IMG/VR virus record: IMGVR_UViG_3300031566_000035
Span: 1-57,447 of that record
Reading direction: 5' to 3' (one strand)
DNA length: 57,447 nt
DNA from: a virus
Taxonomy: Duplodnaviria; Caudoviricetes
Shown here: piece by piece, positions 7,374 to 41,407 of the stretch
Numbering within the stretch: position 1 is the stretch's first letter
Layout of the letters: every line of letters begins with the position of its first letter
Program-made: the position numbers and the translations under genes
The notes under the pieces: model-generated
Seen by the model: only the letters and a program-made list of their open reading frames with translations
The model's database searches: none
Told to the model about the DNA's origin: nothing

Positions 7374-7404
7374 TTAAAAAACGAAAATTTAAAAAAATAA
7401 AACC

Positions 7405-7911: not shown

Positions 7912-7915
7912 GGAC

Positions 7916-9220: not shown

Positions 9221-9676
9221 ATGTACACAAAAGCAGAACTTAAAAAACTCATTGATGAAGTATTGAAAGGTATCGGGAAACATTCGCCCGATGCCTCCAA
9301 TTTAATCCAAGGGATAATAGCCCAAGAATCCAGAATGGGAAAATATAGAAGGCAGCTTGGTGGCGGTCCGGCATTGGGAATTTGCCAAATCGAGCCGAAT
9401 ACTTTTAACGATTTGATAAATTATATAAAAAAAGATATACAATTATATTTTAAAATATTGAAAACCTGCAAAATATCGTCATTCGATCCCATTGATCTGA
9501 TAAGCAACGATAAACTTTCGATATGTATGTGCAGGGTTTTCTTTTTAAGGTTCAAAGAAAAATTGCCATCTACGATAGGAGGTTATGCAAAGGAATGGAA
9601 GGTAAGGTACAACACAAAGTACGGAAAGGGTACGGTAGAGGAGTTTATCAAAAACTATAAAAAATACATTTTATGA
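9221..9676 (+). CDS. Putative endolysin (lysozyme-like fold)
   Basis: QES...GPALGICQIEP and WK.RYNT..GKG motifs; next to holin. Confidence 0.75.
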   Translation: MYTKAELKKLIDEVLKGIGKHSPDASNLIQGIIAQESRMGKYRRQLGGGPALGICQIEPNTFNDLINYIKKDIQLYFKILKTCKISSFDPIDLISNDKLSICMCRVFFLRFKEKLPSTIGGYAKEWKVRYNTKYGKGTVEEFIKNYKKYIL

Positions 9677-10383
9677 AAATAACCAAAACGGCAAAAATAG
9701 CGGTAACGACATTCATAATTTTTATCCTTGTAATTTCCGCTTGGCAATTTTATAAACTTTTCGACAAAAACAAAACCTACGAAACGCAATTACAATTTTC
9801 CAATGCGAAAATAAGCCTATACAGCGATACGGTAACCGTTTTGAAGCAGGATACCGCAAAGTTGTTAAGGCGCATCGACAGCTTCGCTAAAGCGGCACAC
9901 GAGACATTTTTGTTGCACGAAGCGGAAATACAAAAAAGGTTGGCTTTGGAAAAAGAAAAAGAAGCCGCAAAAGAAGGGATAAAAAACTCCTCAGAGCCGG
10001 AACAGGTCAAATTTTTTATCTCTTATACCGGGGAAAATTACGAACCAGAAATCTTCAAGGATAAATATCTTATAAGTTTCCCCAGTATAAGTTATTTCAA
10101 CAATATTGCAATAGACTATGATTTTTGCATCAGGAACAATCTGTCGTTAATAACCGATCTTGAAATCCGTAACAAAGAAATTTTAAATAAAAACGGTGAA
10201 TTGAAATCTTTTTATACGTATAGGGAAAAAACAGATAAAATGCTTATTATGAAAAATTCGATAATAGCAGAAAGCAATACAAAATTTTATTTGCAAAACG
10301 GCGAAATAAAAAAATACAAAAAACAAAGGAATGTATCTTATGGCCTTACAATAGCCCTTATTTTAATAAAATCCATATTCTAA
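9673..10383 (+). CDS. Spanin-like membrane coiled-coil protein
   Basis: N-terminal TM, coiled coil, hydrophobic C-terminus; follows endolysin. Confidence 0.55.
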   Translation: MKITKTAKIAVTTFIIFILVISAWQFYKLFDKNKTYETQLQFSNAKISLYSDTVTVLKQDTAKLLRRIDSFAKAAHETFLLHEAEIQKRLALEKEKEAAKEGIKNSSEPEQVKFFISYTGENYEPEIFKDKYLISFPSISYFNNIAIDYDFCIRNNLSLITDLEIRNKEILNKNGELKSFYTYREKTDKMLIMKNSIIAESNTKFYLQNGEIKKYKKQRNVSYGLTIALILIKSIF

Positions 10384-12680: not shown

Positions 12681-12851
12681 ATGAAAACAGTAGACGATTA
12701 TTTGATTGCTCTTGAAAAAAAGGGCAATGATAAAAACGACCAACTCTTAACAAAGTTGCACGCTTTTTTGATGAACCAAAAAGCAAACGGAAAAGGGAAT
12801 ATGTCCGTAACGAATGTTGAAATGTTGAACTTGATAAATAAATATTTATGA
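12681..12851 (+). CDS. Small hypothetical protein
   Basis: MKTVDDYL...; ATGA overlap with next gene. Confidence 0.55.
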   Translation: MKTVDDYLIALEKKGNDKNDQLLTKLHAFLMNQKANGKGNMSVTNVEMLNLINKYL

Positions 12852-13669
12852 AGGCATTTTTTGTAAATCTGAACACAAAACAAATCCATGTACCAAATTC
12901 GAGGTGGTACGAGATCGGCGATTACACAAAGACAAAAATAGCATATCCCGGAGTAACCTCGATTTTACAAGTAAAGGCAAAGCAAGGATTGATGAACTGG
13001 CAGATCCAAATAACTAAATTAGGCATAGACCCAAAGGAACTTGGACGGAAGATGATGGACGAGGGCAGCAAGGTACATAATGCAGCAGAAAAATTAACGA
13101 ACGGTGAAACGTTGACGTATTCTGATGAATATGATTTTTATGGGGAATGGCTACCGATCTGTAGGTTCAAATCCGCGTTCGAGGAACTTGAAATAAAGCC
13201 TATCCTCATAGAACAAACCGTGTGGTCGAATAGGATGAAGTGTGCCGGGACATTGGATCAGTTATCATTCATCACATTGAAAGGACTTAAAAATCCGGTC
13301 TTGGCATTGATCGACCTGAAAAGGAGCGCAAACGCATACATAGATTACCAATGGCAAATATCAGCTTATAAGGAATGCTTGGTCGAAATGATCGAAAAAC
13401 AAGATAGCATGAGCAAATTCCTTGTATCTTATTTGTGCGATAAAATGAAAATGAGATCAAACGAGATACTCGATGAACTTAAAAAGACAAGGTGTTTTTT
13501 GCTCCTTTTGAACACGCCGACAAAAAAAGGGTGGAGATTGGCGGAGGTTGAAAATATCGAAACCAAACTTGCGGGATTCGAGGCTTGCAATACATTGTTC
13601 AAAGTGGAATACCCGAACTTGGAATATATACGTGAACTTTATCCAACTGAATTAACTTTAAATTTATAA
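12848..13669 (+). CDS. PD-(D/E)XK exonuclease (phage recombination nuclease)
   Basis: YPGVTSIL, GSKVH, AGTLD, LIDLK, WQISAY motifs. Confidence 0.85.
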   Translation: MKAFFVNLNTKQIHVPNSRWYEIGDYTKTKIAYPGVTSILQVKAKQGLMNWQIQITKLGIDPKELGRKMMDEGSKVHNAAEKLTNGETLTYSDEYDFYGEWLPICRFKSAFEELEIKPILIEQTVWSNRMKCAGTLDQLSFITLKGLKNPVLALIDLKRSANAYIDYQWQISAYKECLVEMIEKQDSMSKFLVSYLCDKMKMRSNEILDELKKTRCFLLLLNTPTKKGWRLAEVENIETKLAGFEACNTLFKVEYPNLEYIRELYPTELTLNL

Positions 13670-13672: not shown

Positions 13673-14437
13673 ATGAATTACAGAGACAAATTAAAAGAAT
13701 CGCAAGGGGACAACCAGTCATTCCCAAAATTAATACCCGATTTATTTATCGAGGTAAAGGACAACAACGGAGTACCATCATTTTCTTTTTGGGATAAGGA
13801 TTTGGAGAAACGCAAATACAATCCAAAACCTATTGTTGGAGTATTGATAGGCAAATGTATTGCCGCATCTATCTATGACGACCAGCTTGGCCCAAAAGGC
13901 GGAACTTATAAGAGTTCATATTATCTTAACAATAACAATCAAATTGTGCTATTTGGCAATGGGGGAAAAATTGAGGTTAAGGGAACTATTGAAGATTTGG
14001 AACGGTTCGCAAATGGATGTACCGGAAATTTATCTAAAAAACAAGTATTATTGGTTCTTACAGATAATGGCTTGATGGCCGTTTCAACAAATCTAACCCT
14101 GTCTATCGGGCAGCTATCTTCTATTGGAACCGATGTTTTTTTAGATAAAAATATCATTCTTACTCCAACTCTTTACAATCCCGATGACATAGAAATTTCT
14201 TCTAAAACTAAAAAATATCTTGGCAAATTCGCAGCTACAAACAAACCTAAATACGCGTCCATTTCAATTGGAGGGAATATTGACGATACCATGCAAGGAT
14301 TAAGCGAGGCTGCCGATATGTTTATTGAATGGCGGAATCATATAAATAAAGGCGGTGATGTTATTGTAGAAATAAACGAAGATATACATGAACATTCCAT
14401 TGATGACATTCCGCCAGAAGATGATTTGCCTTTTTGA
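13673..14437 (+). CDS. Putative ssDNA-binding/annealing protein
   Basis: Follows the exonuclease; acidic tail ending DDLPF. Confidence 0.6.
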   Translation: MNYRDKLKESQGDNQSFPKLIPDLFIEVKDNNGVPSFSFWDKDLEKRKYNPKPIVGVLIGKCIAASIYDDQLGPKGGTYKSSYYLNNNNQIVLFGNGGKIEVKGTIEDLERFANGCTGNLSKKQVLLVLTDNGLMAVSTNLTLSIGQLSSIGTDVFLDKNIILTPTLYNPDDIEISSKTKKYLGKFAATNKPKYASISIGGNIDDTMQGLSEAADMFIEWRNHINKGGDVIVEINEDIHEHSIDDIPPEDDLPF

Positions 14438-15154: not shown

Positions 15155-15601
15155 ATGAGGGAAATTTCTACGTATGGAAATATTGAAAGCGGGAAATTAA
15201 AAATCTATAAGAAAAGAGAATTCTTGGAAAGTATAGAAATCCTTGGTGGGAATAAAAAAGTCCGTGTTGAAATAATAATAAAAAAACTTTATAAAAAACG
15301 CAGCAATGAACAAAACAGGTATTATTGGGGATATATAATAATGGAATTTTGCAGGGGGTTCAAAGAAACAACAGGTGAAATAATATCAAAGGAACAAGCT
15401 CATGAATTTCTTAAAAGTAAATTCCTTTATATTGAATTCGTAAATGAAGAACATGGAACAATAGAGCGCATTCCAAGACAGTCATCAAAATTGACAACTG
15501 TTGAGTGGATCGAATTCAATGATGAATGCGGGAAATTTATAACCGAATGGTTCGGGATAACAATACTTGAACCTAATCAACAATCTGAATTAATATTTTA
15601 A
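15155..15601 (+). CDS. NinB-like recombination protein
   Basis: KRSNEQNRYYWG, HEFLK, SSKLTTVE motifs. Confidence 0.7.
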   Translation: MREISTYGNIESGKLKIYKKREFLESIEILGGNKKVRVEIIIKKLYKKRSNEQNRYYWGYIIMEFCRGFKETTGEIISKEQAHEFLKSKFLYIEFVNEEHGTIERIPRQSSKLTTVEWIEFNDECGKFITEWFGITILEPNQQSELIF

Positions 15602-15975: not shown

Positions 15976-16257
15976 ATGAAAAACGAAGCAAAAAAGATTG
16001 ATAACAAACAAGGCAATGGAGTTTTACCGTGTGTTAGCGGTTCGTTTTCATGGAAAAAACTTCTACACAACTTTTGTTATTGGACAAATCCATTTTATAT
16101 GCTATCAACTGATTTAAAGAATAGTCCAAAAGCGCAGGCATTTATTGTAGAGCATTTCGGACATATACTTGAGCCAATAGTAATTTGGTTATCTAAAATG
16201 TTGTATTGCGCCATTAAGGCTTGTGCGCATAGCATCCGTTACGCTAAGAAAGGCTAA
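15976..16257 (+). CDS. Chimeric hypothetical protein at the degenerate left end of array 1
   Basis: Reads through orphan GTT arms at 16033 and 16200. Confidence 0.5.
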   Translation: MKNEAKKIDNKQGNGVLPCVSGSFSWKKLLHNFCYWTNPFYMLSTDLKNSPKAQAFIVEHFGHILEPIVIWLSKMLYCAIKACAHSIRYAKKG

Positions 16258-16284
16258 TTGAGTGATTTAAAAAGTTTTGAAATT

Positions 16285-16785
16285 ATGACTCATAAAGAAG
16301 AAAGAGAATTTATTCGACTAAAGTTTAATGGTAGATGTGCGTATTGCGGAAACCCATTGCCTAATAAGTGGCACGTAGACCATAAAATTCCAGTTGTTAG
16401 AAATAAAGAGTTTAATTATGAAAAAAACAAATGGGTTTCCGCAGGCTTTGAGAATCCAGAGAATGACAATATTGAAAACAAAATACCATCTTGTCCAAGT
16501 TGTAACATTAATAAACACTCATTGAGCGTAGATCAATTTCGTAGTTTGATTTCTGGATTTATAAAATCATTAAATAGAGACTCTGTGCAATATAAGGTAT
16601 CTAAAAGATATGGGTTGATACAAGAAATTGATAGGGATGTAGAATTTTATTTTGAAAAATTTCAAAACGAAAATCACGTCCCGTCGGTTTGCAAGTGTAT
16701 AAACTGGCATCCTTCAATTAAAGCAGATATGGGTAAAAAAGCAAGATGTTCGCATTGTGGTAAATTACGGCAAACTTATTGCTAA
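16285..16785 (+). CDS. HNH endonuclease with fused C-terminal Cys-rich tail
   Basis: CAYCG...VDHKIP...N..PSCPSCN motif; stop codon lies in CTAAC. Confidence 0.85.
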   Translation: MTHKEEREFIRLKFNGRCAYCGNPLPNKWHVDHKIPVVRNKEFNYEKNKWVSAGFENPENDNIENKIPSCPSCNINKHSLSVDQFRSLISGFIKSLNRDSVQYKVSKRYGLIQEIDRDVEFYFEKFQNENHVPSVCKCINWHPSIKADMGKKARCSHCGKLRQTYC

Positions 16786-16842
16786 CGGTGGTGTATGACA
16801 CGTTTGAATTAAACAGACATTAATTAAAAATACTATACAGTT

Positions 16843-17085
16843 ATGAAAAACACTAAATATACAAATACAGACTACGTGCAAATGTGTTATGACACGTTGT
16901 TAGCACCCGTTGTTTGGGGCGTTAATAAATTCGGACAAGAAGTAAAAGAACATGATAAGCTAAGTTGTGGCAATGGACACGATACTTGGTTTACTCACGT
17001 AATGTTTGACACACAAAGAAACTGTTGGCACAGGGAGCAAGACTATTACCACAGCCGAGTGGTTGGTTTTTACAATGGGTGCTAA
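16843..17085 (+). CDS. Cassette hypothetical protein
   Basis: Starts in attC loop, crosses GTT 16899, stops at TAAC. Confidence 0.7.
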   Translation: MKNTKYTNTDYVQMCYDTLLAPVVWGVNKFGQEVKEHDKLSCGNGHDTWFTHVMFDTQRNCWHREQDYYHSRVVGFYNGC

Positions 17086-17134
17086 CGGTTTGTGTTTGTG
17101 TAGTGCGTGAAATATGCACAAAATTTGATACGAG

Positions 17135-17335
17135 ATGAAAAAAACAATTTTATTTAACGACTTCTGTGCTAATAAAAAATGTGAAGAATATATTGCATGG
17201 AATTATGATGTCGAAGGTTGTCCAGTAGACTGTGAAAGTTGTAAACTGGTAGGACAAAGCCATGACATTACGGAATATCCTAAAAATTGTTTGTTTTTGA
17301 ATGACATACAAAAGTTTGAACGAGGCAGAAAGTAA
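17135..17335 (+). CDS. Cys-rich cassette protein inside an attC-like loop
   Basis: 66 aa with six Cys. Confidence 0.65.
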   Translation: MKKTILFNDFCANKKCEEYIAWNYDVEGCPVDCESCKLVGQSHDITEYPKNCLFLNDIQKFERGRK

Positions 17336-17476
17336 GCATGGAATTTACGCATTGTTAGCGTTATTGTGTTTTGCGAAACTATTTTGCTTCAACTTAGATT
17401 AAACTTTGTTGAGCAAAATATTAACGCTAACGGTTTAGGTATGGCATGTAATTTTACGAATTAAAAGAACGAAATA

Positions 17477-17719
17477 ATGGAAACAAAAGTATTAGAAATT
17501 ATTAAAGATGAAAGTGAAAAAGCAGATGTTAGAAAATACACCTGCATTAACGGATTTGGATATTCGCAGTTTGAACGCAATATAGCAGATAGGGTAGTAA
17601 AATTATTTGCTATACCACGTGTTACAAACTGGCGTTTTTGGTATGACAACCGAAACAACAGGATTGTAGGATTTATAGTTGGATTGATTACAGGCATGGC
17701 TATTTACGCTTGTTTGTAA
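17477..17719 (+). CDS. Cassette protein with C-terminal TM
   Basis: Crosses GTT 17621, stops at TAAC. Confidence 0.7.
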   Translation: METKVLEIIKDESEKADVRKYTCINGFGYSQFERNIADRVVKLFAIPRVTNWRFWYDNRNNRIVGFIVGLITGMAIYACL

Positions 17720-17868
17720 CGTTGACGCTATGAAAAGTAGCGGAAATCGAAGCACTTAACTATCAAATTACGATGAATTTAAATAAAATTATAAACCACC
17801 AAACAGCACCGACACCGCTATTTTTTATAGCATGTGTTATGCGCTGGGCGGTATAATAACAAATAATT

Positions 17869-18117
17869 ATGAAAAGTAATGATAAACCCGTAAACCCAAC
17901 TCCAATAGCTGGAGGTGATGAATCAGTAGTAAATATTCATTCAATGGCTAATAGTACAGGAATGACAGAAGGAATTACATTGCGTGAACATTTTGCATCA
18001 ATGGCTATGCAAGGATTATTAAGTCAACATAATCTAAAACAGCCTACTGACCAACAAATAATATGTCAACTTAGCGTTGAATTAGCCGATACGTTGCTTG
18101 ATGAACTCGCAAAGTAG
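17869..18117 (+). CDS. Conserved phage hypothetical protein (GxTLRExFA.MAMQG family)
   Basis: GITLREHFASMAMQGLL...ADTLL motif. Confidence 0.75.
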   Translation: MKSNDKPVNPTPIAGGDESVVNIHSMANSTGMTEGITLREHFASMAMQGLLSQHNLKQPTDQQIICQLSVELADTLLDELAK

Positions 18118-18238
18118 CCTTGCGCATAACGGTTTGGCTATGTTTTGAAGCCTAACCACAACCACAAATGATTGAATTTAGTATAAACTTGACAAAGGCT
18201 TTTAAATATAGCTTTTGTTATAAACTGAAAAAAAAATT

Positions 18239-18388
18239 ATGGCAACAACTATTTGGTTGATACTATCCTTGATTGAAAAAGAGCCGATACCTAACTTTTT
18301 GCAAAGCAATGGCAGTTGGGTTAGTTCGTGGATACCTGCATTATTGCTTGATTTATTCGTTATTTACATAATTTTTTATTGTTTATAA
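18239..18388 (+). CDS. 49-aa membrane peptide cassette
   Basis: MATTIWLILSLI...IYIIFYCL fills body 18217-18389 and stops at TAAC. Confidence 0.55.
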   Translation: MATTIWLILSLIEKEPIPNFLQSNGSWVSSWIPALLLDLFVIYIIFYCL

Positions 18389-18427
18389 CGAAAAAGTATA
18401 TGAACTGAAATTAAAATTTTTTGAGCG

Positions 18428-18640
18428 ATGGCAAGAACTAAAGGAAGCGGTTGGGGTGGTGGAACTATCCTATACCAAAAATGCCCTAAATGCGGCAAAA
18501 AGAAAGTAATGTATGATGGTGGTAGCGGAATAAGAGATTTAACCTCAATTCCGTTTAAATGCACCTCATGTAAGCATAGGTTTAATGACTCTGATTTGAT
18601 TAGAGAGCAATACGCAGCAAAAGCGGGTAGGCAATTTTAA
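18428..18640 (+). CDS. Zinc-ribbon protein inside an attC-like loop
   Basis: CPKCG and CTSCK pairs. Confidence 0.75.
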   Translation: MARTKGSGWGGGTILYQKCPKCGKKKVMYDGGSGIRDLTSIPFKCTSCKHRFNDSDLIREQYAAKAGRQF

Positions 18641-18820
18641 TTTTTGTTTATATACAGTGTTGTATTGAGCGCAGCGGCGTTTTAATGCAATACAACGTAT
18701 GGTAATATGAAAAGTTGGCTTTGTAGTCACTTTCAGTTTACCATCGCAGCTTGATAGCCAATTTTTTATATTACGTGTTATCGGCTGCCTTTTATTGTTA
18801 AATTATTAAATATCAAATAA

Positions 18821-19204
18821 ATGAAAAGAGAAATATTATTTAAAGGAAAATCGGTTAATACTGGCGAATGGGTTGAAAGTATGACTATTGCAAAAGGAAC
18901 TATTAAACGCAAAAAAGATGATGTGTTTATGGAGATTGGCGAAAATAAATGGATAGGTATTGAACCTAAATCATTAAGCCAATTTATAAACCAAAAGGAT
19001 AAAAACGGCAAAAAGATTTTTGAAGGCGATTATGATGCCGATGGTAATTGTGTTGTTTGGTGTGAAAACTGTAATGGTTTTGAATTTGCTGCTATAGATG
19101 TACCAACTAAAGATATTTGCATACCATGCCATAGATGCGATGGAAATTTCTTCTTTGGCGACCAAATAAACGACTTTGAGATTGTCGGAAATATTGCGGA
19201 CTAA
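18821..19204 (+). CDS. YopX family protein
   Basis: MKREILFKGK...DKNGKKIFEGD...EIVGNI. Confidence 0.85.
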   Translation: MKREILFKGKSVNTGEWVESMTIAKGTIKRKKDDVFMEIGENKWIGIEPKSLSQFINQKDKNGKKIFEGDYDADGNCVVWCENCNGFEFAAIDVPTKDICIPCHRCDGNFFFGDQINDFEIVGNIAD

Positions 19205-19299
19205 GGTTGCCGATAACGAATAGTGGTAAGCGGTCGTTTTAATGCCGTTTACCACGTGTTACCGGCTGACACGGATTATTAACCACTAAAGATTATTAA

Positions 19300-20139
19300 A
19301 TGAACGAATGTAGCAATAACAGTTTTTTGAGCGTTGGCAAAAACGGCTTTGCCGAACTTACACACGGCTCACTTTTTAGTGGCGTTGGCGGGTTTGAAGA
19401 AGGCTCTGAGCTGGCAGGAATAAAGACTATTTGGAATTGTGAACTTGAAAATTACCAAAGTAAAATATTAAAGCAAAATTACAATGAAAGCAAACAATAT
19501 AGAGATATTACAGAAGCCGAAATCAAAGAGCGAGTTAGCATCATTAGTGGAGGTTTTCCGTGCCAAGACATTAGCGTTGCGGGAAAAATGGAAGGTATCA
19601 CAGGTAAACGCTCTGGGCTTTGGAGTGAGATGTTTAGAATTATTAGGGACATTAGACCTTACTACGTCATCATTGAAAACTCGCCAGCTTTGCTTATTCG
19701 AGGATTTGAACAAGTCTTATGCGACCTTTCCAAAATCGGGTATAATGCAGAATGGCAAAGTATTTCAAACATCGCTTTTGGATACCCACACAAGAGAGAA
19801 AGATTATACGCTATTGCCTACGCCAACGAAATCGGATTACAAAGCGACATTTGCACAGGTGACGGCTTTAACTCGATATTTAGAAAGTGGACACCAAATC
19901 AGAATGATGGATATTCTTTGTCAAAAAGGATTCACGAAATCGGAGCGTGTGAAGATATTAGAAATGGTGATGGGTTTCAATCCTGGACACACAGAGTTGG
20001 AAGCATAGGAAATGCAGTAAACCCAACAGTTGCCTACTATTTATTTGAATGTATTAAGCATCATTTTTTAAAAAGGAGGGGAGAAAAAACTGTTATTGCG
20101 GACTTACAGCAGATAACTCGATTAAATGTATCGGCGTAG
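19300..20139 (+). CDS. C5 cytosine DNA methyltransferase, alpha chain
   Basis: LFSGVGG (I), GGFPCQD (IV), ENS (VI), HKRERLY (VIII), GNAV (X); motif IX not seen. Confidence 0.92.
   Translation: MNECSNNSFLSVGKNGFAELTHGSLFSGVGGFEEGSELAGIKTIWNCELENYQSKILKQNYNESKQYRDITEAEIKERVSIISGGFPCQDISVAGKMEGITGKRSGLWSEMFRIIRDIRPYYVIIENSPALLIRGFEQVLCDLSKIGYNAEWQSISNIAFGYPHKRERLYAIAYANEIGLQSDICTGDGFNSIFRKWTPNQNDGYSLSKRIHEIGACEDIRNGDGFQSWTHRVGSIGNAVNPTVAYYLFECIKHHFLKRRGEKTVIADLQQITRLNVSA
19484..20008 (+). CDS. Overlapping alternative-frame ORF, putative methyltransferase beta chain
   Basis: Nested in the +1 frame; LLPTPTKSD and terminal LEMVMGFNPGHT resembling motif IX; true start uncertain. Confidence 0.7.
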   Translation: MKANNIEILQKPKSKSELASLVEVFRAKTLALREKWKVSQVNALGFGVRCLELLGTLDLTTSSLKTRQLCLFEDLNKSYATFPKSGIMQNGKVFQTSLLDTHTREKDYTLLPTPTKSDYKATFAQVTALTRYLESGHQIRMMDILCQKGFTKSERVKILEMVMGFNPGHTELEA

Positions 20140-20239
20140 TGTTTGCTGGTAACGGTTTGGCTATGCACCGTATGAGGAACGAATATGGGGTATAGGTGTT
20201 GTTACCCACCTGTACCGATTTAATAACGAAAAACTTTAA

Positions 20240-20692
20240 TTGAAAATGAAAACTTTTGTCTTGACTGTTTCAAAGCAGTTTCCAAAAACACACGAAAAGG
20301 CTGGAAAATCAACTGGCTTTGTAGAAAATATCTCCCGACTATTTACTAATGATAGTGAGAAGATACATACTATTCGCTCAAATTATGACCTATGGCACAA
20401 ACGAGCAAAAGAAATAAACGAAGGAAAGGCTGTGTTGTCGATTAGATACTGGTTTGAAATGCCTTACCGTTCAAAGCAAGTTGAAATTTGCAGACTTGAA
20501 AGAGTTGGTGTTGAAAAACTTGAACAGCCTGACAACTTCGTATTTGCTCCAATTGAAGGGAAGCCGATTGATTGGGAATTAGTGGCAAAGAATGACGGTT
20601 TAAGTTTTGAGGACTTTTGCGAGTGGTTTAAGTCAAGACAAAAAGAACCTATGGCTGTTCTTCATTTTACCGACTTTAGGTATGGTGGGTAA
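20240..20692 (+). CDS. ASCH/PUA-like protein
   Basis: KIHTIR...W...PYRSKQ...AKNDGLSFEDF..WF; stops at TAAC. Confidence 0.65.
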   Translation: MKMKTFVLTVSKQFPKTHEKAGKSTGFVENISRLFTNDSEKIHTIRSNYDLWHKRAKEINEGKAVLSIRYWFEMPYRSKQVEICRLERVGVEKLEQPDNFVFAPIEGKPIDWELVAKNDGLSFEDFCEWFKSRQKEPMAVLHFTDFRYGG

Positions 20693-20874
20693 CGGTGGCA
20701 ATAAGAAACGAAAGGGATTGCGAGCCACGAACCTATCAAACCGTGAAAATTTGGCACGGATTACTGAACTTGATTAACCGATTAAACCCTTTTGTTTTTT
20801 ATTGCGTGTTATAAGCCGTATTTGTTTTATTATCAACCGAAAGTAAAATAATTTAAAAATAAATCACTTTTTAC

Positions 20875-20905
20875 TTGTATATATGATATATATTATATAT
20901 CTTTA
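20875..20905 (+). promoter_or_regulatory. Internal promoter/operator in cassette 20808-21257
   Basis: TTGTAT followed by near-palindromic ATATATGATATATTATATAT and TATCTTTA (near TAnnTTTG). Confidence 0.5.
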
Positions 20906-20938
20906 CTTCATAATTAATAACAAATAAAACATACAATT

Positions 20939-21103
20939 ATGAGTACAACAGAAGTAAGAGAACAATTAAAAGCAGAAGGAATTTCTGCAATTGTTAAATT
21001 GGTAGATAATAGATTTGAAATAAAAGTAAAAATGCAGGAAAACTTTACAAAAGTAGTAAGAATGTTTCCTTTGGCAAATGTAAGCCATACAACGATTAGA
21101 TAA
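20939..21103 (+). CDS. 54-aa hypothetical protein
   Basis: MSTTEVREQLKAEG...HTTIR; below the track cutoff. Confidence 0.65.
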   Translation: MSTTEVREQLKAEGISAIVKLVDNRFEIKVKMQENFTKVVRMFPLANVSHTTIR

Positions 21104-21244
21104 ATGAAAAAGATTATTGATATACCTGACGAAATAGTTAAAGACTTAAAGAAGTTAGCTATTGACCAAAATAAAGACCTAAAAAACTTTATTCAAGACG
21201 AACTAAAAAAACTTGTCGAGAACCCTCAATCGAAGCCGTCTTAA
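21104..21244 (+). CDS. Ribbon-helix-helix (CopG/Arc-like) regulator
   Basis: MKKIIDIPDEIVKDLKKLAIDQNKDLKNFIQDELKKLV; strand-helix-helix pattern. Confidence 0.75.
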   Translation: MKKIIDIPDEIVKDLKKLAIDQNKDLKNFIQDELKKLVENPQSKPS

Positions 21245-21399
21245 TATGGCTTATAACGTTGAGTATAAGAAACGTAGCGTTTTAAAACACTTAACTACAA
21301 TAACTTACAAAAGTGAAATTGAAATAGAAAATTTAATATTAACCACTGGTGCAGCTATGTTTTTTATACATTGTTACCACCAGTACATTAATTAACAGC

Positions 21400-21645
21400 A
21401 TGAAGAAATTTAATATAAACCACTATATGTACATTCAGATAACCGATACTGGATGGCAACACCTAAAGCAAACTGTGGGTGAAGATTACATTAAACATTG
21501 TATTGAACCTTATAAAACTGATGTAGATGGCAAAACTTGGTATAGATTACAAGCCCACAGTGTATTTGAACTACTGCCAATAAATTTCGGTGGACAAGTA
21601 GCCTACAACCCTAATGTAATGTTTGACGATAAAGACCTTACTTAG
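21400..21645 (+). CDS. Cassette hypothetical protein
   Basis: Fills body 21373-21658. Confidence 0.7.
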   Translation: MKKFNINHYMYIQITDTGWQHLKQTVGEDYIKHCIEPYKTDVDGKTWYRLQAHSVFELLPINFGGQVAYNPNVMFDDKDLT

Positions 21646-21702
21646 TATTGGTGGTAACGTTGAGTGTATGGTTTGATTTTTAACGATTTAAAAGAACGAA
21701 AT

Positions 21703-21954
21703 ATGAAAGATTTAGAACACTTACAAAGAATTATAAAAGAATTGCAAAATGATAAAGATAACGGAAAACTTGGTGATTACGCACAAGGTAGATTAGCTGC
21801 ATTTAAGATGTCAGAAAAATTAGTTAAAAATTTAACTATACATATTGTTAGCAATTCGGTTTGCTGCGATAACTGCCAACACCAAACACCAAGACATAGT
21901 ATTATGTGCAGTAGTTGCTTAGGGTTTAATCACTTTCAGCAAACTGATTGCTAA
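21703..21954 (+). CDS. Cassette protein with C-terminal zinc finger
   Basis: Crosses GTT 21847; CDNC and CSSC encoded in the body. Confidence 0.7.
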   Translation: MKDLEHLQRIIKELQNDKDNGKLGDYAQGRLAAFKMSEKLVKNLTIHIVSNSVCCDNCQHQTPRHSIMCSSCLGFNHFQQTDC

Positions 21955-22076
21955 TGTTTCGACTGTATGGCGTGAGCCTTGTACTTCACAAGGCGGAAAG
22001 CCATTCAATAGATGCTTACGCTATACAGTATGTTATGAGTAGTGACACAAGTTTTAACCTTAAAATAATTATAGAA

Positions 22077-22343
22077 ATGGAAAATGTAAAAGAATTAATT
22101 GAATTAAAAGCTATGATGATATTGGCTTGTAAACTAAATAAAGAGCAACTTATAATTGAACTTACAGACCTTGTAAATTCAATTAATTCAGCATCTATCG
22201 AAAGTCGAAACATTATGAGTAATGAGGCTCAAAAAGAGCTATTAATTGATGTGCTTAATGTTATTGAGCGTTACTATGATGTAGAATTTGGTAACATTGA
22301 TAATGCAGTAAGCTATATATTAGCTAAAATTAATAGTGATTGA
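22077..22343 (+). CDS. Cassette hypothetical protein
   Basis: Within body 22032-22371. Confidence 0.6.
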   Translation: MENVKELIELKAMMILACKLNKEQLIIELTDLVNSINSASIESRNIMSNEAQKELLIDVLNVIERYYDVEFGNIDNAVSYILAKINSD

Positions 22344-22428
22344 GCCGTCCACTTGTGGCATTACTCATAACGGTTTGGCTATGTTTTGAAAATATATTTT
22401 ACTAATTTTTAACTAAAATAAAAAGATA

Positions 22429-22857
22429 ATGAAAAGAGAAATTAAATTTAGAGTTTGGGAACAAAATAAAAAGAAAATGGTATATCCGATTGACACTTTA
22501 AAGGTGAGTAACGAGGAAGGATATTCACATTTAGAGCAATTTTTAGATCGTGGAGATTTAGTAATGGCAGACGATTATGATATTAAGCATTATAAAAAGT
22601 TACCATGTATTATGATGCAATACACTGGAATAAAAGATGTTGACGGCAAAGAAATTTACGAAGATGACATAATTAACGGTATGACCGTAACATACTGCGG
22701 AGATCAAAATGGCGGGCTTGGAATGGCTTGTGGTTGGTATTTACAGCAAGATGATTTTGAAAGATGGATAGAGTTAGAATCTAAATGTAATGCAAATGGA
22801 GATAACCATAAAATTGATGGGAATGTACATGAGAACCCTGAACTACTAAAAAGCTAA
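22429..22857 (+). CDS. YopX family protein inside an attC-like loop
   Basis: MKREIKFRVW...MQYTGIKDVDGKEIYEDD...GNVHENPELL. Confidence 0.9.
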   Translation: MKREIKFRVWEQNKKKMVYPIDTLKVSNEEGYSHLEQFLDRGDLVMADDYDIKHYKKLPCIMMQYTGIKDVDGKEIYEDDIINGMTVTYCGDQNGGLGMACGWYLQQDDFERWIELESKCNANGDNHKIDGNVHENPELLKS

Positions 22858-23098
22858 AAATATATTTATAAAATATTAGCTGTTGTTGTATTGCGCCATT
22901 AAGGCTTGTGCACATAGCATCCGTTACGCTAAGAACTGATTATTAATATGCAGATTATCAGCTTTAAACTGATACAGAGACTATGAAACATAAAAAACAT
23001 TATAGCGTAATGGAATACAATGGATGGCAATAAGAATAGTTGGCTCTCGAAATTTAGTACAGACTTTAATTTGAAATACAAATAAAAACAAAAAAGAG

Positions 23099-23422
23099 AT
23101 GGAAAAACATGATTTAAGAACACAAATTTGCATAGAAGTAGATGCAAAAAATATTGATGGTAAAACAGCGAGCAGATTACTACAAGCTATTAATAATACC
23201 GAAAATAAGCAAATAAGCAAATTACAACATTTCAAGGACACAACTGTTGGGCTATATGCTTTTGATTGTAACCCAGAAGATTTAATTATAAAATTTGTAA
23301 ATAGCCAAAGCGATGCTTGTAGTTTATTTACAGAAGATGTTGATAGACTTACTGAAGATTGGAAAACATTTTGTAATGATAAAAATATTGTAAAAAGTCC
23401 ATTTTTCAGAATTAGTGGGTAG
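23099..23422 (+). CDS. Hypothetical protein inside an attC-like loop
   Basis: 107 aa between arms at 23019 and 23494. Confidence 0.7.
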   Translation: MEKHDLRTQICIEVDAKNIDGKTASRLLQAINNTENKQISKLQHFKDTTVGLYAFDCNPEDLIIKFVNSQSDACSLFTEDVDRLTEDWKTFCNDKNIVKSPFFRISG

Positions 23423-23510
23423 GCTTTTGTTTTTATTCCACACAAACCTACTGCACTTGATTGAAAAACAAGCCAATTATTTTTATTGCGTGTTATAAAC
23501 TGTAAAAATT

Positions 23511-23702
23511 ATGAGCATATTATTAGACAAATTACTAAAAGAAGCAGACACCTCAACAACCACACAAGCAAAAGATTTGAAGTGGTATATCGCAAAACCA
23601 TTACCGTTTTATTCGTTGAAAACAAAACTTAAAAGGATAAAAGATGGATTAAGAGTTATGAACGGAAAATCTTTTGCGGTACATTATAAACAAGATGAAT
23701 AA
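23511..23702 (+). CDS. Cassette hypothetical protein
   Basis: Fills body 23492-23719. Confidence 0.7.
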   Translation: MSILLDKLLKEADTSTTTQAKDLKWYIAKPLPFYSLKTKLKRIKDGLRVMNGKSFAVHYKQDE

Positions 23703-23846
23703 TTTTTATTGTTTATAACGGCTGGCGGTATGGTTTAGTAAAGGCTGACCACTACCGACCAATCGAAGAACAAAACTTAATTCAGCCTTTATTAACTATA
23801 CCGCTTGTTAGGCTTTCGTGCTTTGCGGGCGGGAAACACAAAGATT

Positions 23847-24074
23847 ATGAGAAACTATACAACATTAGATTTAGTGAGGTTTAACAGGCTTGCAAATGAA
23901 AACAAAGACCTAAAGCCAATTGAGTTGATTAAATTATATAATGAAAAGTACCCTGAGAAAACAGCAAAAGAAAAACTGATAATTTTATCAAAGGCTTTAG
24001 GAATTAATAACCTACACAAAGCCTTAACTGGTAATGATATTCCAGAGGACGAGCGTTGGGAGCATGAAGCCTAA
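23847..24074 (+). CDS. Cassette hypothetical protein
   Basis: Stops at TAAC. Confidence 0.7.
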   Translation: MRNYTTLDLVRFNRLANENKDLKPIELIKLYNEKYPEKTAKEKLIILSKALGINNLHKALTGNDIPEDERWEHEA

Positions 24075-24134
24075 CGGCAAATTGTAAGTTGTCGGGTGCT
24101 GTTGAAATACGCACAGAATTAAATTGAAAAATAA

Positions 24135-24470
24135 ATGTTGAATAACTTAAATAGTGAACGGATGAAATTTACAGACAAACAAATTAAGGCAGCAAAGGAA
24201 GTGAAAGAAGAAGTAATACACGGTACTTTGTATGATTGGAGACATATTTACATGGCTGGTGAAATTTGCATGTGGGACGAATTACAGCAAAAGAAAGTGA
24301 ACGGTGTTGAACAAAGCGAAAGCACCTGCAATTTACAAAATGTTATAGATAGGTTTTGTGCGTTGGAAGATGCGATGAAACTTACTCTTACAAAAAACAT
24401 TGGTAAAGTTAGTTTAATAAATAGATTTGAAGAACTTGGTAAAGCGCTGGGGAGGGAAACTTCTCTATAA
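24135..24470 (+). CDS. Cassette hypothetical protein
   Basis: Crosses GTT 24342, stops at TAAC. Confidence 0.7.
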   Translation: MLNNLNSERMKFTDKQIKAAKEVKEEVIHGTLYDWRHIYMAGEICMWDELQQKKVNGVEQSESTCNLQNVIDRFCALEDAMKLTLTKNIGKVSLINRFEELGKALGRETSL

Positions 24471-24534
24471 CGTTGAGCGTATGCGCCTGTTGGCGTGTTG
24501 ATTAGAATTACATAACTTTAAAAACAGATATAAG

Positions 24535-24762
24535 ATGAAAAAAGAAAACACAGTTAAAAATACCACTAAGCCAATGGCGTATGACGCATTGTTAGGTGTT
24601 GTTGCTGCCGAGCTAACCCAAGCAGCCGAAATAATACAACACTTAAAGGCTTATGGAATGATACACCCAGTTACAGGAGTTAAATACCCAGAAGGAACGC
24701 ACCAAGATTTTATTAGAAAAGCTGATGAATGGCTATGGCGTTTCCGAGGCAATAACACCTAA
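24535..24762 (+). CDS. Cassette hypothetical protein
   Basis: Crosses GTT 24591 (AYDALL), stops at TAAC. Confidence 0.7.
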   Translation: MKKENTVKNTTKPMAYDALLGVVAAELTQAAEIIQHLKAYGMIHPVTGVKYPEGTHQDFIRKADEWLWRFRGNNT

Positions 24763-24810
24763 CGGTAAATTGTATGGGTTGATTTTGCCCGATTTAAAAT
24801 AACAAATGAT

Positions 24811-25104
24811 ATGAAAAAAGACTTAATTAAAACGCTATGTATTTTCCAATACTGGCTACACGACAATTACAAAACAATAAGCACCAGCTCTATTGATATG
24901 ACAAATAGAGCTTCTGAATTTGTACAAAGCAAAGGGCAAAATTTACCTGTACAAATTGTTAGCGATAGTACGTTAACTAAACATAGAAGCCTTGGATGGG
25001 TTCGAGAAGTAAAGCAGTATAAATGTCCTCACTGCTTAAGAAATCAAGTGCCTGAACTGGCTTCATTTTGCCCAGATTGCGGTGCTAAATTTGATTGGGA
25101 TTAG
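24811..25104 (+). CDS. Cassette protein with C-terminal zinc ribbon
   Basis: Crosses GTT 24958; CPHC...FCPDCG. Confidence 0.7.
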   Translation: MKKDLIKTLCIFQYWLHDNYKTISTSSIDMTNRASEFVQSKGQNLPVQIVSDSTLTKHRSLGWVREVKQYKCPHCLRNQVPELASFCPDCGAKFDWD

Positions 25105-25189
25105 TATTATCGCTAACGAAAAGCAATAAGAAACGTGCGAAATAACGCACAAAACTAAATACGAGTACTGATTTTAAATAAAAAAAGCG

Positions 25190-25483
25190 ATGGAAGAAAA
25201 CACAGTATTATTGAGCCTTGAAAAATATGATAGGCTAGTTGAAGCTCATAAAAAAGTAAATGAGCCAAGGAAAAAAACAGTATTAATTGAAAGCGCAATG
25301 TTTAGCCGTTATGAGTGTAAAACAGATGACGAAGCGACTGCGAAATTGGCGAATGATTTAAAAGAGGTTAAGGCTGAACTGGCAGAAGCTAAGGCGAAGT
25401 TAGACAAACTGCCAAAAGAAATAACGCTTGATGACATTAAACAAATGAGCTGGCGTGAGTTTAAGAAGTGGAAGCGTGGGTAG
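25190..25483 (+). CDS. Coiled-coil protein inside an attC-like loop
   Basis: 97 aa between arms at 25115 and 25563. Confidence 0.7.
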   Translation: MEENTVLLSLEKYDRLVEAHKKVNEPRKKTVLIESAMFSRYECKTDDEATAKLANDLKEVKAELAEAKAKLDKLPKEITLDDIKQMSWREFKKWKRG

Positions 25484-25700
25484 GCTTTTTATTTAAAATT
25501 GCCCCAATAACCCACTAAAGCTAATACGAGGCACAGACCTAAGCATGTTTTTTATTGCATGTTGTACGCTGTGCCTTGTTTAAAAGCAAACTGAACTACC
25601 AATTACGCACCAACCTAATTAAAGATTTTAGGCATTGCGTACAACGGTAGTAGGTAAGTTGCGTTGCGTGAATTTAGTAAAAACTTAAAAAATATAACAA

Positions 25701-25913
25701 ATGTTAAAATTTATAAAAAACTTATTTAAAGGTAAAAAGCAGCAATGCAATTTACCTGTTGTTAGCGGTAGTGCTTGGGATTTGCCTGATGGCGTTTACC
25801 AAGTTGGAGTTGATAAAGCAGCTAAAGGAAGTAAAGACTATAGCTGCCGTGTATGGATGAAAAAGGGAATAAGTGGAGAAATGATAATTGTAGCGGAGGA
25901 GCATTACCGCTAA
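25701..25913 (+). CDS. Cassette hypothetical protein
   Basis: Crosses GTT 25761, stops at TAAC; last unit of array 1. Confidence 0.7.
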   Translation: MLKFIKNLFKGKKQQCNLPVVSGSAWDLPDGVYQVGVDKAAKGSKDYSCRVWMKKGISGEMIIVAEEHYR

Positions 25914-25965
25914 CTATGTTATATAGTTACTTAATTGTTATTAATTTAAAAATCAAATAATTATG
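25909..25965. repeat. Array-terminal site, copy 1 (57-bp direct repeat)
   Basis: Identical to 29002-29058; core AACTATGTTATATAGTT. Confidence 0.9.
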
Positions 25966-26961: not shown

Positions 26962-27366
26962 ATGGATTCTAAAACAATCAAAAAATATTCAAAAAAAACC
27001 GTCCCGCAATTAATAAAAATTGCAACACTGCATTTTAATAAATTTATCAGGGAAAGGGACAAGGATTTTGGATGTGTCTCATGTCAATCAAAAGTAAATC
27101 AGGCTGGACATTTTTATTCCGGTGGTCATTATTCAGCCCTTAGATTCAATCAGAACAATGTACATGGACAATGTACAAGATGCAATCTGTACCTTTCTGG
27201 AAACCTTAACGAATACCGAAAAAATATTGTTAAAAGGATAGGTGAAAACGGACTTGTTAAACTTGATGAACTCGCTGCATATTATAAAAGGAACGGGTTT
27301 AAATGGGATAGATTTACACTTATAAAGATCATAGAGGAACATAAATTATTAAACAAAAAAAAATGA
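26962..27366 (+). CDS. ninG: NinG/Rap-like recombination endonuclease
   Basis: FNKFIRERD..CVSC..AGHF...LRFN..NVHGQC..CN..LSGN. Confidence 0.88.
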   Translation: MDSKTIKKYSKKTVPQLIKIATLHFNKFIRERDKDFGCVSCQSKVNQAGHFYSGGHYSALRFNQNNVHGQCTRCNLYLSGNLNEYRKNIVKRIGENGLVKLDELAAYYKRNGFKWDRFTLIKIIEEHKLLNKKK

Positions 27367-27663: not shown

Positions 27664-28332
27664 ATGGGACTAAATAAATCAAAAGGTAATATGTATGGGT
27701 TTATCACCCACACTTGGAACACTGTTAAAGGTGCTTGTTTTCACGATTGCAGTTATTGTTATATGAAAAGATGGGGTAAACAAAACCCTATTAGATTTGA
27801 TGAAAAGGAATTAAAAACAGATTTAGGAATTGGAAATTTTATATTTGTTGGAAGTAGTTGTGATATGTGGGCTAAAAATATTCCTGATGAATGGATAATT
27901 AAGACATTGAAAAAATGCGAAATTTCTGATAATAAATACCTTTTCCAAACCAAAAACCCAGATAGAATACTTCATTTTATGGACGCATGTATTATTAGTG
28001 ATAAATCTATTGCATGTACTACAATTGAAAGTGATAAATTTTATCCTGAAATAATGAAAAATTCACCACATCCAGTACTTAGAAGTTTATCAATGGAAGA
28101 AATAAGCGGTGCGATTAAAACATTTGTAACAATCGAACCGATAATGGATTTTAATTTAAAAAATTTAATACAAATAATAAAACGATGTAATCCAGAACAG
28201 GTAAATATCGGTGCTGATTCTGGAAATAACAATCTACCAGAACCACCAAAAGAAAAAGTTTTAGAACTTATTTCTGAACTTCAAAAATTCACAATTGTAC
28301 ACAAAAAATCTAATTTGAACAGGCTTTTTTAA
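27664..28332 (+). CDS. DUF5131 / phage Gp37-Gp68 family radical-SAM-like protein
   Basis: TWN...GACFHDCSYCY, FVGSSCD, QTKNP, TIEP motifs. Confidence 0.8.
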   Translation: MGLNKSKGNMYGFITHTWNTVKGACFHDCSYCYMKRWGKQNPIRFDEKELKTDLGIGNFIFVGSSCDMWAKNIPDEWIIKTLKKCEISDNKYLFQTKNPDRILHFMDACIISDKSIACTTIESDKFYPEIMKNSPHPVLRSLSMEEISGAIKTFVTIEPIMDFNLKNLIQIIKRCNPEQVNIGADSGNNNLPEPPKEKVLELISELQKFTIVHKKSNLNRLF

Positions 28333-28590: not shown

Positions 28591-29021
28591 AACGTCTTGA
28601 TGTATGAACTGATTTTTTAACGATTAAATAAACTAAAATGAAAAATATAAAGATAAATTTTGAAGGTAGAAACGAAGGTTGTGCTTTTTTTGCTTTGTAC
28701 GCAGGACTTAGAATGTACAACGAATATAAGCACGAACAACACAAGGGTAAAGATTCATTCAGTACCGCAGGAGCAGAAGCCTATGGCATCATGGAAGACC
28801 TTAGATATAGCCACCCTAAAGAATATGAAGAAGCAAAAAAAGAGTACGATAGTGAGTTGAAAAATTTGATTATACATCTTGTTAGCCAACAAAGCGAACA
28901 GTTAATTAATTTTTTAACATGGCATGATTCGGAGAACTTAGGTTGCTTACCTGACGGAATTGAAGGCAGAGTGGATGAATATCTAAAATTAATTAATTGT
29001 GGCTAACTATGTTATATAGTT
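28591..29021. mobile_element. Cassette array 2 (one complete unit plus terminal site)
   Basis: AAC 28591 GATGTATGAACTGATTTTTTAAC pairs with GTTGAAAAATTTGATTATACATC-TT-GTT 28881; body GTTAGCCA...TGGCTAAC 29007. Confidence 0.85.
28638..29006 (+). CDS. Cassette hypothetical protein
   Basis: Crosses GTT 28881, stops at TAAC. Confidence 0.7.
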   Translation: MKNIKINFEGRNEGCAFFALYAGLRMYNEYKHEQHKGKDSFSTAGAEAYGIMEDLRYSHPKEYEEAKKEYDSELKNLIIHLVSQQSEQLINFLTWHDSENLGCLPDGIEGRVDEYLKLINCG

Positions 29022-29058
29022 ACTTAATTGTTATTAATTTAAAAATCAAATAATTATG
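29002..29058. repeat. Array-terminal site, copy 2
   Basis: Identical to 25909-25965; supplies the leader and ATG of the replication gene. Confidence 0.9.
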
Positions 29059-40924: not shown

Positions 40925-41006
40925 TTATTACCGCTAACGGTTTGTGTATGAAAAGTACGGGATTAACCCTAAAAATTATAAACGAGTACAAATAAAATTT
41001 ACGATT

Positions 41007-41228
41007 ATGAAAACAACAAATGAATTAAGAGACGAATTAGCAATGAAAATGCCAAAAGAAGCATTGCCAACGCTTAACGCACAAGAAACTATGGAGAAAG
41101 TTGCAAAAGAATTTGATATTGATGTTGACTTTAATGATGAGATAAGCCTTATTGAATTTAGCCTAAAATACCAAGCTGCAATAAGGTATAAGTATGCTGA
41201 TGCAATGATTGAAGCAAGAGCTAAGTAA
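41007..41228 (+). CDS. Hypothetical protein inside an attC-like loop
   Basis: LRDELAM...YKYADAMIEAR motif. Confidence 0.75.
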   Translation: MKTTNELRDELAMKMPKEALPTLNAQETMEKVAKEFDIDVDFNDEISLIEFSLKYQAAIRYKYADAMIEARAK

Positions 41229-41407
41229 ATTTTATTGCTTCAATTACGCAGCAAAGTAGATACGAGAGATACAGTAGTATTTTTTATACACTTTGTTACC
41301 GTGTCGTTGCTTCTCCTTAAAAGATGTGACGCTCAAAGATTGCTACTAATTAATTTTAGAGCAATGCACGGTAACTATGTTATATAGTTCACTTTTATTG
41401 CAATAAA

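Follow-up and report, generated by a model that had tools for sequence, protein, structure and literature searches.

The DNA analyzed here, referred to as the window, is the linear IMG/VR virus record IMGVR_UViG_3300031566_000035 at its whole length of 57,447 bases (completeness ~64%). Its coding (+) strand carries an array of 21 consecutive units, each consisting of a hairpin followed by a body, from 16784 to 25912 (array A), and single units at 28591-29005 (array B) and 40936-41373 (array C). A first-pass annotation, made from the sequence alone, had proposed that these units are gene cassettes inverted relative to those of classical integrons, in that the attC-like hairpin lies 5' of the gene and moves together with the body downstream of it. 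Arrays B and C lie outside the range it had assigned to them (16784-25914). The order of elements in a unit is (T)AAC, a spacer of 3-7 nucleotides (nt), one half of an imperfect stem, a loop, the other half, a spacer of 0-4 nt, GTT(A) and the body. Each cassette appears to begin at the C of a TAAC and to end with the AA of the following TAAC, and its gene occupies the loop of the hairpin or the body, or extends across the GTT arm. The 23 AAC...GTT sites curated in the window and the elements that close the arrays are listed below, together with the open reading frames (ORFs) that lie in or across them.

16784..25928, + strand: array A, 21 units and the closing terminal mini-hairpin
16784..16901, + strand: site 1 (AAC..GTT); ORF 16843-17085 begins in the loop and crosses GTT
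17084..17356, + strand: site 2, weak arms; ORF 17135-17335 inside the loop
17429..17623, + strand: site 3, 19-pair stem; ORF 17477-17719 crosses GTT
17718..17838, + strand: site 4, 18-pair stem
18128..18219, + strand: site 5, 17-pair stem
18387..18661, + strand: site 6, 22-pair stem; encloses ORF 18428-18640
18694..18779, + strand: site 7, 20-pair stem
19215..19260, + strand: site 8, 46 nt; upstream of the C5 methyltransferase gene 19300-20139
20151..20203, + strand: site 9
20691..20810, + strand: site 10, 22-pair stem
21255..21375, + strand: site 11
21656..21849, + strand: site 12; the ORF ending at 21954 crosses GTT
21953..22034, + strand: site 13, AAT triplet variant
22369..22925, + strand: site 14, weak arms; encloses ORF 22429-22857
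23009..23494, + strand: site 15, AAT variant, 19-pair stem; encloses ORF 23099-23422
23717..23809, + strand: site 16
24073..24344, + strand: site 17; ORF 24135-24470 crosses GTT
24469..24593, + strand: site 18, weak arms; ORF 24535-24762 crosses GTT
24761..24960, + strand: site 19; ORF 24811-25104 crosses GTT
25115..25563, + strand: site 20; encloses ORF 25190-25483
25643..25763, + strand: site 21; ORF 25701-25913 crosses GTT
25912..25965, + strand: terminal element copy 1, mini-hairpin AACTAT..ATAGTT and leader to the next ATG
28591..29005, + strand: array B, one unit; site 28591-28883, ORF 28638-29006
29005..29058, + strand: terminal element copy 2; matches copy 1 from GCTAAC through the ATG in the sequences shown
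40936..41373, + strand: array C, one unit; site 40936-41297, enclosing ORF 40944-41228
41373..41389, + strand: terminal element copy 3, mini-hairpin

The AAC and GTT triplets close an imperfect hairpin at all 23 sites, two of which are AAT variants. The stem has 10-22 pairs at 20 of the 23 sites, and its arm sequences vary among sites yet remain complementary. Weak arms were found at 17084, 22369 and 24469 (7, 4 and 8 pairs, respectively), and these three appear as sites mainly through the pairing between neighboring sites described below. Loop size ranges from 9 to ~550 nt, with five sites having loops of 270-550 nt. The base adjoining each triplet is conserved, giving TAAC in most sites and GTTA in 19 of 21, and the other R-box positions are unit-specific. 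The motif TAACGKT occurs 25 times in the window, compared with 17.1 +/- 4.3 times in shuffled sequences; 21 of these occurrences are on the + strand, 13 of them within 16783-24766. When a single scanner (stem of at least 12 pairs) was run on both strands, there were 27 matches on the + strand and five on the - strand, and addition of the pairing rule left 23 and two, respectively.

All three arrays close with the same mini-hairpin, AACTAT..ATAGTT (at 25912, 29005 and 41373), and a comparable repeated element is found where the two arrays of the Polaribacter phage P12002L end. These array-end elements may be backbone sites where cassettes enter. In the window a stretch of ~52 nt, which runs from GCTAAC through the mini-hairpin and an AT-rich leader to the ATG of the following gene, is present at 25909-25965 and 29003-29058, with a partial third copy at 41373, and may serve as a promoter or leader besides closing the array. 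A different repeat of ~50 nt, starting GTTGTATTGCGCC, has one copy at 16203-16256, within the 3' end of ORF 15976-16257 and upstream of unit 1, and another at 22880-22935, where it forms the right arm and R' of site 14; it hints that array A formerly began further upstream. Among the bodies, that at 20808-21255 has an AT-rich stretch resembling a promoter, followed by two tiny ORFs (20939-21103 and a second from 21103), a layout that resembles, as a layout only, the self-expressed toxin-antitoxin cassettes of integrons.

Neighboring sites are tied together by a pairing rule, which we term the chain rule: the four nt after the GTT of one site complement the four nt before the AAC of the next. 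All four positions pair at 20 of the 21 junctions, the exception being 19258/20151 with three of four, and perfect runs reach 5-7 nt, which together with the triplets make a helix of 8-10 bp. The two flanks of one and the same site, in contrast, match at 1.7 of four positions versus 1.55 of four in a shifted control. Every body is thus bracketed by an inverted repeat of its own, and every hairpin by arms of its own. As a control we used Shewanella phage M16-3, which has an annotated integron integrase and whose integron is listed in the accessible text of Qi et al. 2023 (PMC9892861); nine of its cassette bodies have the corresponding pairing of GTT+7 with 7+AAC. Because this bona fide integron with IntI has the same pairing, the chain rule can be read as a signature of cassette recombination within the triplet, although by itself it would not tell which of the two triplets is used.

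The first-pass annotation had claimed that the coding strand folds best, and this was borne out by the arms and by folding of both strands. In the stem pairs, G on the AAC arm stands opposite T in 49 cases versus 11 of the reverse arrangement, and the spacer on the AAC side is the longer one at 19 of 23 sites (medians of 5 nt after AAC and 2 nt before GTT), both as had been stated. For the 15 strong sites, which were picked on the + strand so that the comparison of strands is biased, folding with RNA parameters favored the + strand at every site (mean difference -9.3 kcal/mol), and folding with DNA parameters did so at 14 of them (mean -2.9 kcal/mol). For the eight short sites the z-score relative to shuffled sequences was lower on the + strand in all eight, and folded as DNA they reached z <= -2 on the + strand in six and on the - strand in two. 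A common procedure was then applied to 13 sites of the window and seven sites of the M16-3 integron. The better-folding strand was the coding strand at 13 of 13 window sites versus the non-coding strand at six of seven control sites, and the G:T pairs per site on the coding and the other strand numbered 3.4 and 0.5 in the window and 0.14 and 1.86 in the control.

The position of the unpaired bases followed a different pattern. The coding strand had more of them on its AAC arm at 12 of 13 window sites and at five of seven control sites. In classical attC sites, as described in the accessible text of Nivina 2016, the bottom strand exceeds the top strand in stability and in number of G:T pairs and places its extrahelical bases on the arm opposite AAC, and the control integron agrees with that arrangement. 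The window sites are not simply classical attC sites reversed, because the bulge should then sit on the GTT arm of the coding strand, and it does not. The proposal that the genes run antisense to the canonical cassette direction is supported by the strand bias and by the breakpoints described below, with the qualification that the bulge asymmetry is not that of a flipped classical attC.

The ORFs respect one triplet and ignore the other, in agreement with what had been proposed. No ATG-initiated ORF of at least 50 amino acids (aa) crosses an AAC, and seven cross a GTT after beginning in the loop (starts at 16843, 17477, 21664/21704, 24135, 24535, 24811 and 25701). A further five ORFs lie wholly within loops (17135-17335, 18428-18640, 22429-22857, 23099-23422 and 25190-25483); in all, twelve ORFs of the window start ahead of GTT. 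Three ORFs that were called mechanically from TTG do cross an AAC (20607-20777, 21213-21395 and 21948-22343). Among the coding sequences (CDS) annotated by the depositors of P12002L, none crosses any of the 10 AAC junctions, four cross GTT and one lies inside a loop. The stop codons that had been placed at TAAC or TAAT were all found to be ORF ends (11 of 11, that at 18388 ending a 49-aa ORF, 18239-18388), but such stops do not discriminate the polarity because the classical control integron has them too.

Direct evidence for the boundaries of the mobile unit came from pairs of near-identical genomes of Polaribacter and Flavobacterium phages, which are outside the window's own lineage. Across these pairs, 23 of 25 boundaries of indels or replacements fall at a TAAC junction and one lies beside GTT. 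Polaribacter phages P12002L and P12002S are ~99% identical and differ by blocks; all seven resolved boundaries are at AAC junctions, with homology beginning or ending at ...NNNNAACG(T), and the extra P12002S segment at 9226-10320 (reverse-complement coordinates) is equal to three whole units. A unit of 506 nt with TAACGTT at both ends (two of two boundaries) distinguishes mumin6-1 from mumin6-3 and mumin6-4 by its presence or absence, and holds one gene whose start is in the hairpin loop. In five Muminvirus and Hattifnattvirus genomes (mumin, filifjonk, tooticki, mymlan and hattifnatt), with >98.5% identity within blocks, 16 of 18 boundaries are at TAAC. Where the junctions of both partners are visible, the crossover intervals are TAACGT, TAACGTT or CTTATAAC and 5-8 nt wide, into which the earlier suggestion of a crossover at AA|C on the plus strand fits. 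In filifjonk insertion 1, an arm identity of 9 nt was on offer and was not used. These comparisons support a mobile unit made of the hairpin and the body downstream of it, which is how co-segregation had been predicted to fall. They contradict the view that the attC follows its gene, because the breakpoints are at the AAC junction.

Over greater evolutionary distances the hairpins and bodies are less strictly coupled. IMG/VR contig L007 and mumin6-1 share one hairpin that is 92% identical, with unrelated DNA on either side, and its loop supplies an ATG and ~14 codons, in two frames, to two proteins without detectable similarity, one of them the annotated methyltransferase gp006. Alignment of mumin6-1 (L076) 2433-3224 with L007 from 3249 onward places the frame offset in a 1-nt indel right after the ATG. 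Similarly, P12002S has a hairpin that is 89% identical to one of P12002L and stands ahead of a different gene, and the body of the gp36 methyltransferase is found again, at 87% identity, behind a different hairpin. In L006, L007 and L042 the methyltransferase homology is confined to the interval from GTT to the next AAC, and stops at GTGTTACGC on one side and at GCGTAACGT on the other. Over longer times there is also exchange at, or close to, the GTT junction, and the hairpin behaves as a portable start module.

The methyltransferase cassette of the window was itself compared across six loci, a comparison that failed to tell which hairpin accompanies the gene. Its C5 methyltransferase core (19353-20058) has ~77% DNA identity to many IMG/VR contigs (L010-L047) with few or no hairpins (at most five per strand, about equally on both), and is 81-85% identical to the hairpin-bearing contigs L006-L009 and L042; the gene ends beyond the core are not common to those contigs.

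Based on the above, we consider it somewhat better than an even chance that the array is a set of mobile gene cassettes, integron-like and of mirrored polarity, which move in circular form by structure-specific recombination on the folded coding strand with exchange within TAAC (AA|C), served by a host (Xer- or IntI-like) enzyme or an unrecognised phage enzyme. In such a process the coding strand would fold as single-stranded DNA, and exchange would take place inside TAAC, most simply at AA|C on the coding strand. Excision would yield a circle whose complete base helix of 8-10 bp, under the hairpin, is made by the cassette's own two ends, and the circle would re-insert at another TAAC, including that of the array-closing mini-hairpin AACTAT..ATAGTT. 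The enzyme would be host-encoded or a phage protein of unfamiliar type rather than a recognisable phage tyrosine recombinase. The hairpin may have a second role as a portable translation start, giving the ATG and the first codons of many cassette genes. What we observed directly is the anatomy, the strand bias, the pairing rule and, in relatives, the TAAC breakpoints; the link with integrons is drawn by likeness only, because no integrase was found, and membership among integrons is not claimed.

Several results weigh against this interpretation. As DNA the hairpins are only moderately stable (z of -0.6 to -4.8 on the + strand), and the loops of five of them measure 270-550 nt. At 12 of 13 sites it is the AAC arm of the better-folding strand that has the surplus of unpaired bases; because the extrahelical bases of classical sites are opposite AAC on the recombined strand in the accessible text of Nivina 2016, a classical IntI would be expected to disfavor the folded coding strand and to prefer the other one. 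Within the array, the AAC and GTT flanks belonging to one site are not complementary past the triplet, and hairpins and bodies occur in differing combinations at 87-92% identity. One hattifnatt boundary is inside a 20-nt identical left arm of two hairpins and one boundary is just 3' of GTT; homology-driven exchange therefore also occurs. Neither a tyrosine recombinase (PF00589) nor a Y1 transposase (PF01797) was found in the window, which is ~64% complete, and there was no PF00589 match and no Y1 transposase above the family cut-off in the complete genomes of P12002L, P12002S, mumin6-1 and Cellulophaga phage phi12:1. The PF00589 search gave a match in all 14 control genomes, and the lone Y1 hit, in phi12:1, scored 13 bits, below the cut-off, and contains a stop codon. 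A Prolixibacteraceae metagenome-assembled genome (MAG) with a prophage that carries such an array has 11 integrase matches, counted genome-wide and irrespective of placement relative to the prophage locus; the Pfam-scanned ORFs of the 20-kb locus itself are phage genes with no integrase match. Finally, the phage's own exonuclease, NinB and NinG/Rap could act on the conserved junction. These belong to a lambda-like recombination module that brackets array A both upstream and downstream and also includes the HNH gene abutting the array; its members are listed here.

12848..13669, + strand: exonuclease (phrog_298), recombination module, upstream of array A
15155..15601, + strand: NinB/Orf recombination mediator, recombination module
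16258..16785, + strand: HNH / endonuclease VII-like gene, its stop codon being the TAA of the first TAAC
26962..27366, + strand: NinG/Rap junction-specific endonuclease, downstream of array A

As an alternative, the arrays could have arisen by shuffling of the kind proposed for T4-type promoter/stem-loop motifs (PeSLs), in which the hairpins would be primarily regulatory (a translation start region, a terminator or an RNA processing signal) and homologous or microhomology exchange by a phage exonuclease/NinB/Rap-type system would require no dedicated enzyme. We regard this as the main rival, possible although on balance unlikely. According to the accessible text of the reports on PeSLs (PMC2839356, PMC4122927), the motifs bound indels and form mini-circles by recombination, and in the window the exonuclease, NinB and NinG/Rap are all encoded. 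Conservation extends furthest at the left junction (TAACGGT in the window and up to CTTATAACGTT in Muminvirus), which homology alone would favor, one boundary does fall within a common 20-nt arm, and the failure to find a recombinase gene would be accounted for. Loops that contain start codons, and an mRNA-sense strand with G:U-compatible pairs, would also fit a role in RNA. Shuffling leaves unexplained, however, why the ends of the bodies are perfectly complementary over 8-10 bases (20 of 21), a feature that a true integron has as well. In addition, most crossovers lie in 5-8 nt, a longer arm identity was in one case available and went unused, and the exchanging partners are otherwise unrelated in sequence. 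The better folding of the sense strand, its G:U-compatible pairs and the loops with conserved start regions would equally suit static mRNA structures or terminators that take no part in gene movement. This is the least probable of the accounts that we weighed and is already contradicted by the breakpoint data, in that indels between 99%-identical phages start and end exactly at these sites; nor would pairing of body ends across whole ORFs have a plausible role in a translated mRNA.

Two further accounts keep the cassettes mobile and alter the enzyme or the polarity. The arrays could be ordinary clusters of attC sites lacking an integrase (CALINs) in the classical orientation, each hairpin being the attC of the upstream gene, with crossover at G|TT and the minus strand folded. 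It is consistent with this that the coding-strand AAC arm has the extra unpaired bases as in the control (12 of 13 here and five of seven there), that stops within TAAC occur in the control likewise, and that IntI1 recombined one P12002L site, as stated in the accessible text of Qi et al. 2023 (PMC9892861). Against it, 23 of 25 natural boundaries are at AAC and one only is beside GTT, a G|TT crossover would cut seven ORFs of the window and four annotated CDS of P12002L, and the minus strand folds worse at 13 of 13 sites; the classical orientation is already largely refuted, and we consider it highly improbable. Only slightly less improbable, in our estimation, is that an HUH-type or other nuclease moves the units by single-strand transposition, by analogy with IS200/IS605: the hairpin foot would be recognised, the coding strand cut after TAAC and single-stranded circles formed at replication forks. 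Strand specificity, a hairpin beside a fixed short motif and the lack of any visible target duplication would all be in keeping with it. However, there was no Y1 transposase above the cut-off in the window and the four phage genomes, and such elements have conserved ends, whereas the inverted ends here are unit-specific.

With classical integrons the arrays share the AAC/GTT triplets, an imperfect hairpin with unpaired spacers, a co-oriented array, the pairing of GTT-side bases with those before the next AAC, frequent stops in TAAC, and one strand that folds better and holds the G:T pairs. They differ in that the hairpin precedes the gene and exchange is at the coding-strand AAC junction rather than at G|TT, that the coding strand folds better (13 of 13 versus one of seven in the control), and that on the better-folding strand the AAC arm carries the surplus unpaired bases. 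Unlike in integrons, genes start inside the site and loops extend up to 550 nt, only YAAC appears to be retained of the RYYYAAC consensus of attC, and in the window, ~64% complete, no intI gene was found and no attI was recognised. Another comparison is offered by elements that have no recombinase of their own and are served by the host Xer tyrosine recombinase, such as the pdif modules of Acinetobacter plasmids, which are flanked by inversely oriented sites, and CTX phage, which integrates from a folded single strand. With spacers as unequal as those found here (5 versus 2 nt), the sites are unlikely to consist of a single double-stranded site in a pair of inverted copies. The T4-type PeSLs (Arbiol 2010, Comeau 2014) are similar as stem-loops before accessory genes in plastic regions that bound indels, with circles proposed as vectors; they differ in having a promoter and a terminator and in relying on homologous recombination, and neither an AAC/GTT core nor complementary body ends are described in the accessible text of those reports.

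The closest published observations are those of Qi et al. 2023 (PMC9892861), whose accessible text reports CALINs, defined as attC clusters without an integrase, in virulent phages including P12002L. There, two predicted P12002L sites "with divergent directions" were treated as ordinary attC and IntI1 recombined one of them, and one HattCI+Infernal site is given for that phage; in our analysis the P12002L array is on the coding strand. The same kind of site in at least one shared phage and a frequent methyltransferase cargo connect those CALINs with the arrays described here, whereas arrays of 10-21 sites, the leading-hairpin polarity, TAAC breakpoints and start codons within sites are not mentioned in the text accessible from that study. 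Having at least two sites and no integrase, the arrays would be counted as CALINs if the sites were accepted as attC, but they depart from attC in two structural respects. Full-text searches of the literature and a term search of the P12002L/S genome paper found no description of these arrays.

Integrons are the textbook example of gene capture in cassettes, and their polarity, in which the gene comes first and the attC after it, with the bottom strand recombined, is taken as a rule; the phages described here show the same logic of sequence with the opposite polarity, and no such enzyme was found in them. Arrays of 10-21 cassettes are present in cultured, tractable phage-host pairs (Polaribacter P12002L/S and Flavobacterium FspS phages), which makes testable the nature of the cassette-moving enzyme, whether circles are the form in which lytic phages exchange accessory genes, anti-restriction methyltransferases among them, and how attC strand choice relates to bulge geometry. 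There is also a practical consequence, in that integron-finding software may orient such sites arbitrarily and assign genes to the wrong cassette. As a broader and more tentative proposal, to which we give appreciably less than even weight, Bacteroidota phages, both lytic and temperate, may share an undescribed cassette system without an integron integrase. In such a system the folded coding strand would be the substrate of a recombinase, either unrecognised or borrowed from the host, with the cut at TAA|C, and the hairpin ahead of the gene would double as a start or leader that can be fused in either of two frames to unrelated bodies. It would then be a second, mirror-image solution to cassette exchange, perhaps ancestral to attC or convergent with it.

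Carriers of the arrays include the cultured Polaribacter phages P12002L and P12002S, Flavobacterium Muminvirus phages and several IMG/VR contigs. The chained sites are without exception on the coding strand in P12002L (13 versus none on the opposite strand), P12002S (12 versus none), L006 (four versus none), L007 (six versus none) and mumin6-1 (two versus none). In the prophage of the Prolixibacteraceae MAG, four chained sites lie between the genes for the large terminase and the portal, and the first TAAC supplies the stop codon of the terminase gene. A DUF5131 / radical-SAM-like gene is part of the backbone in the window (27664-28332) and is a hairpin-led cassette in that prophage (L158 9841-10764; L159). 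The arrays do not appear to be tied to this gene, because among the loci with a DUF5131-like gene chained sites were found in only seven of 76 IMG/VR loci and three of 36 genome loci. Four chained sites also adjoin a DUF5131-like homologue on the minus strand (1619-8209) of L187, a contig in the bin of a Thermoplasmatota archaeon MAG, which may be a mis-binned phage contig.

Apart from the arrays, the window encodes phage proteins that include the large terminase, portal, capsid and tape-measure proteins and a DnaB-like helicase. There is no close cultured phage, with terminase identity to cultured phages of at most 31%, and a search with the protein encoded at 13673-14437 gave no near relatives of the window phage in IMG/VR. 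The HNH gene as query matched only two distant loci, and in a DNA search of INPHARED with the window the methyltransferase gene was the sole match. Its host is probably a member of the Bacteroidota, a phylum whose promoters differ from the sigma-70 consensus, because the nearest homologue of one window gene is in the Prolixibacteraceae MAG and in Bacteroidales MAGs. No Rfam family reached its gathering score on the window. At 2242-2330 the hairpin scan also gave a set of short stems that recurs after 34 nt (2259/2293 and 2276/2310), which suggests a 34-bp tandem duplication at the junction of a 765-aa ORF and ORF 2296-3132.

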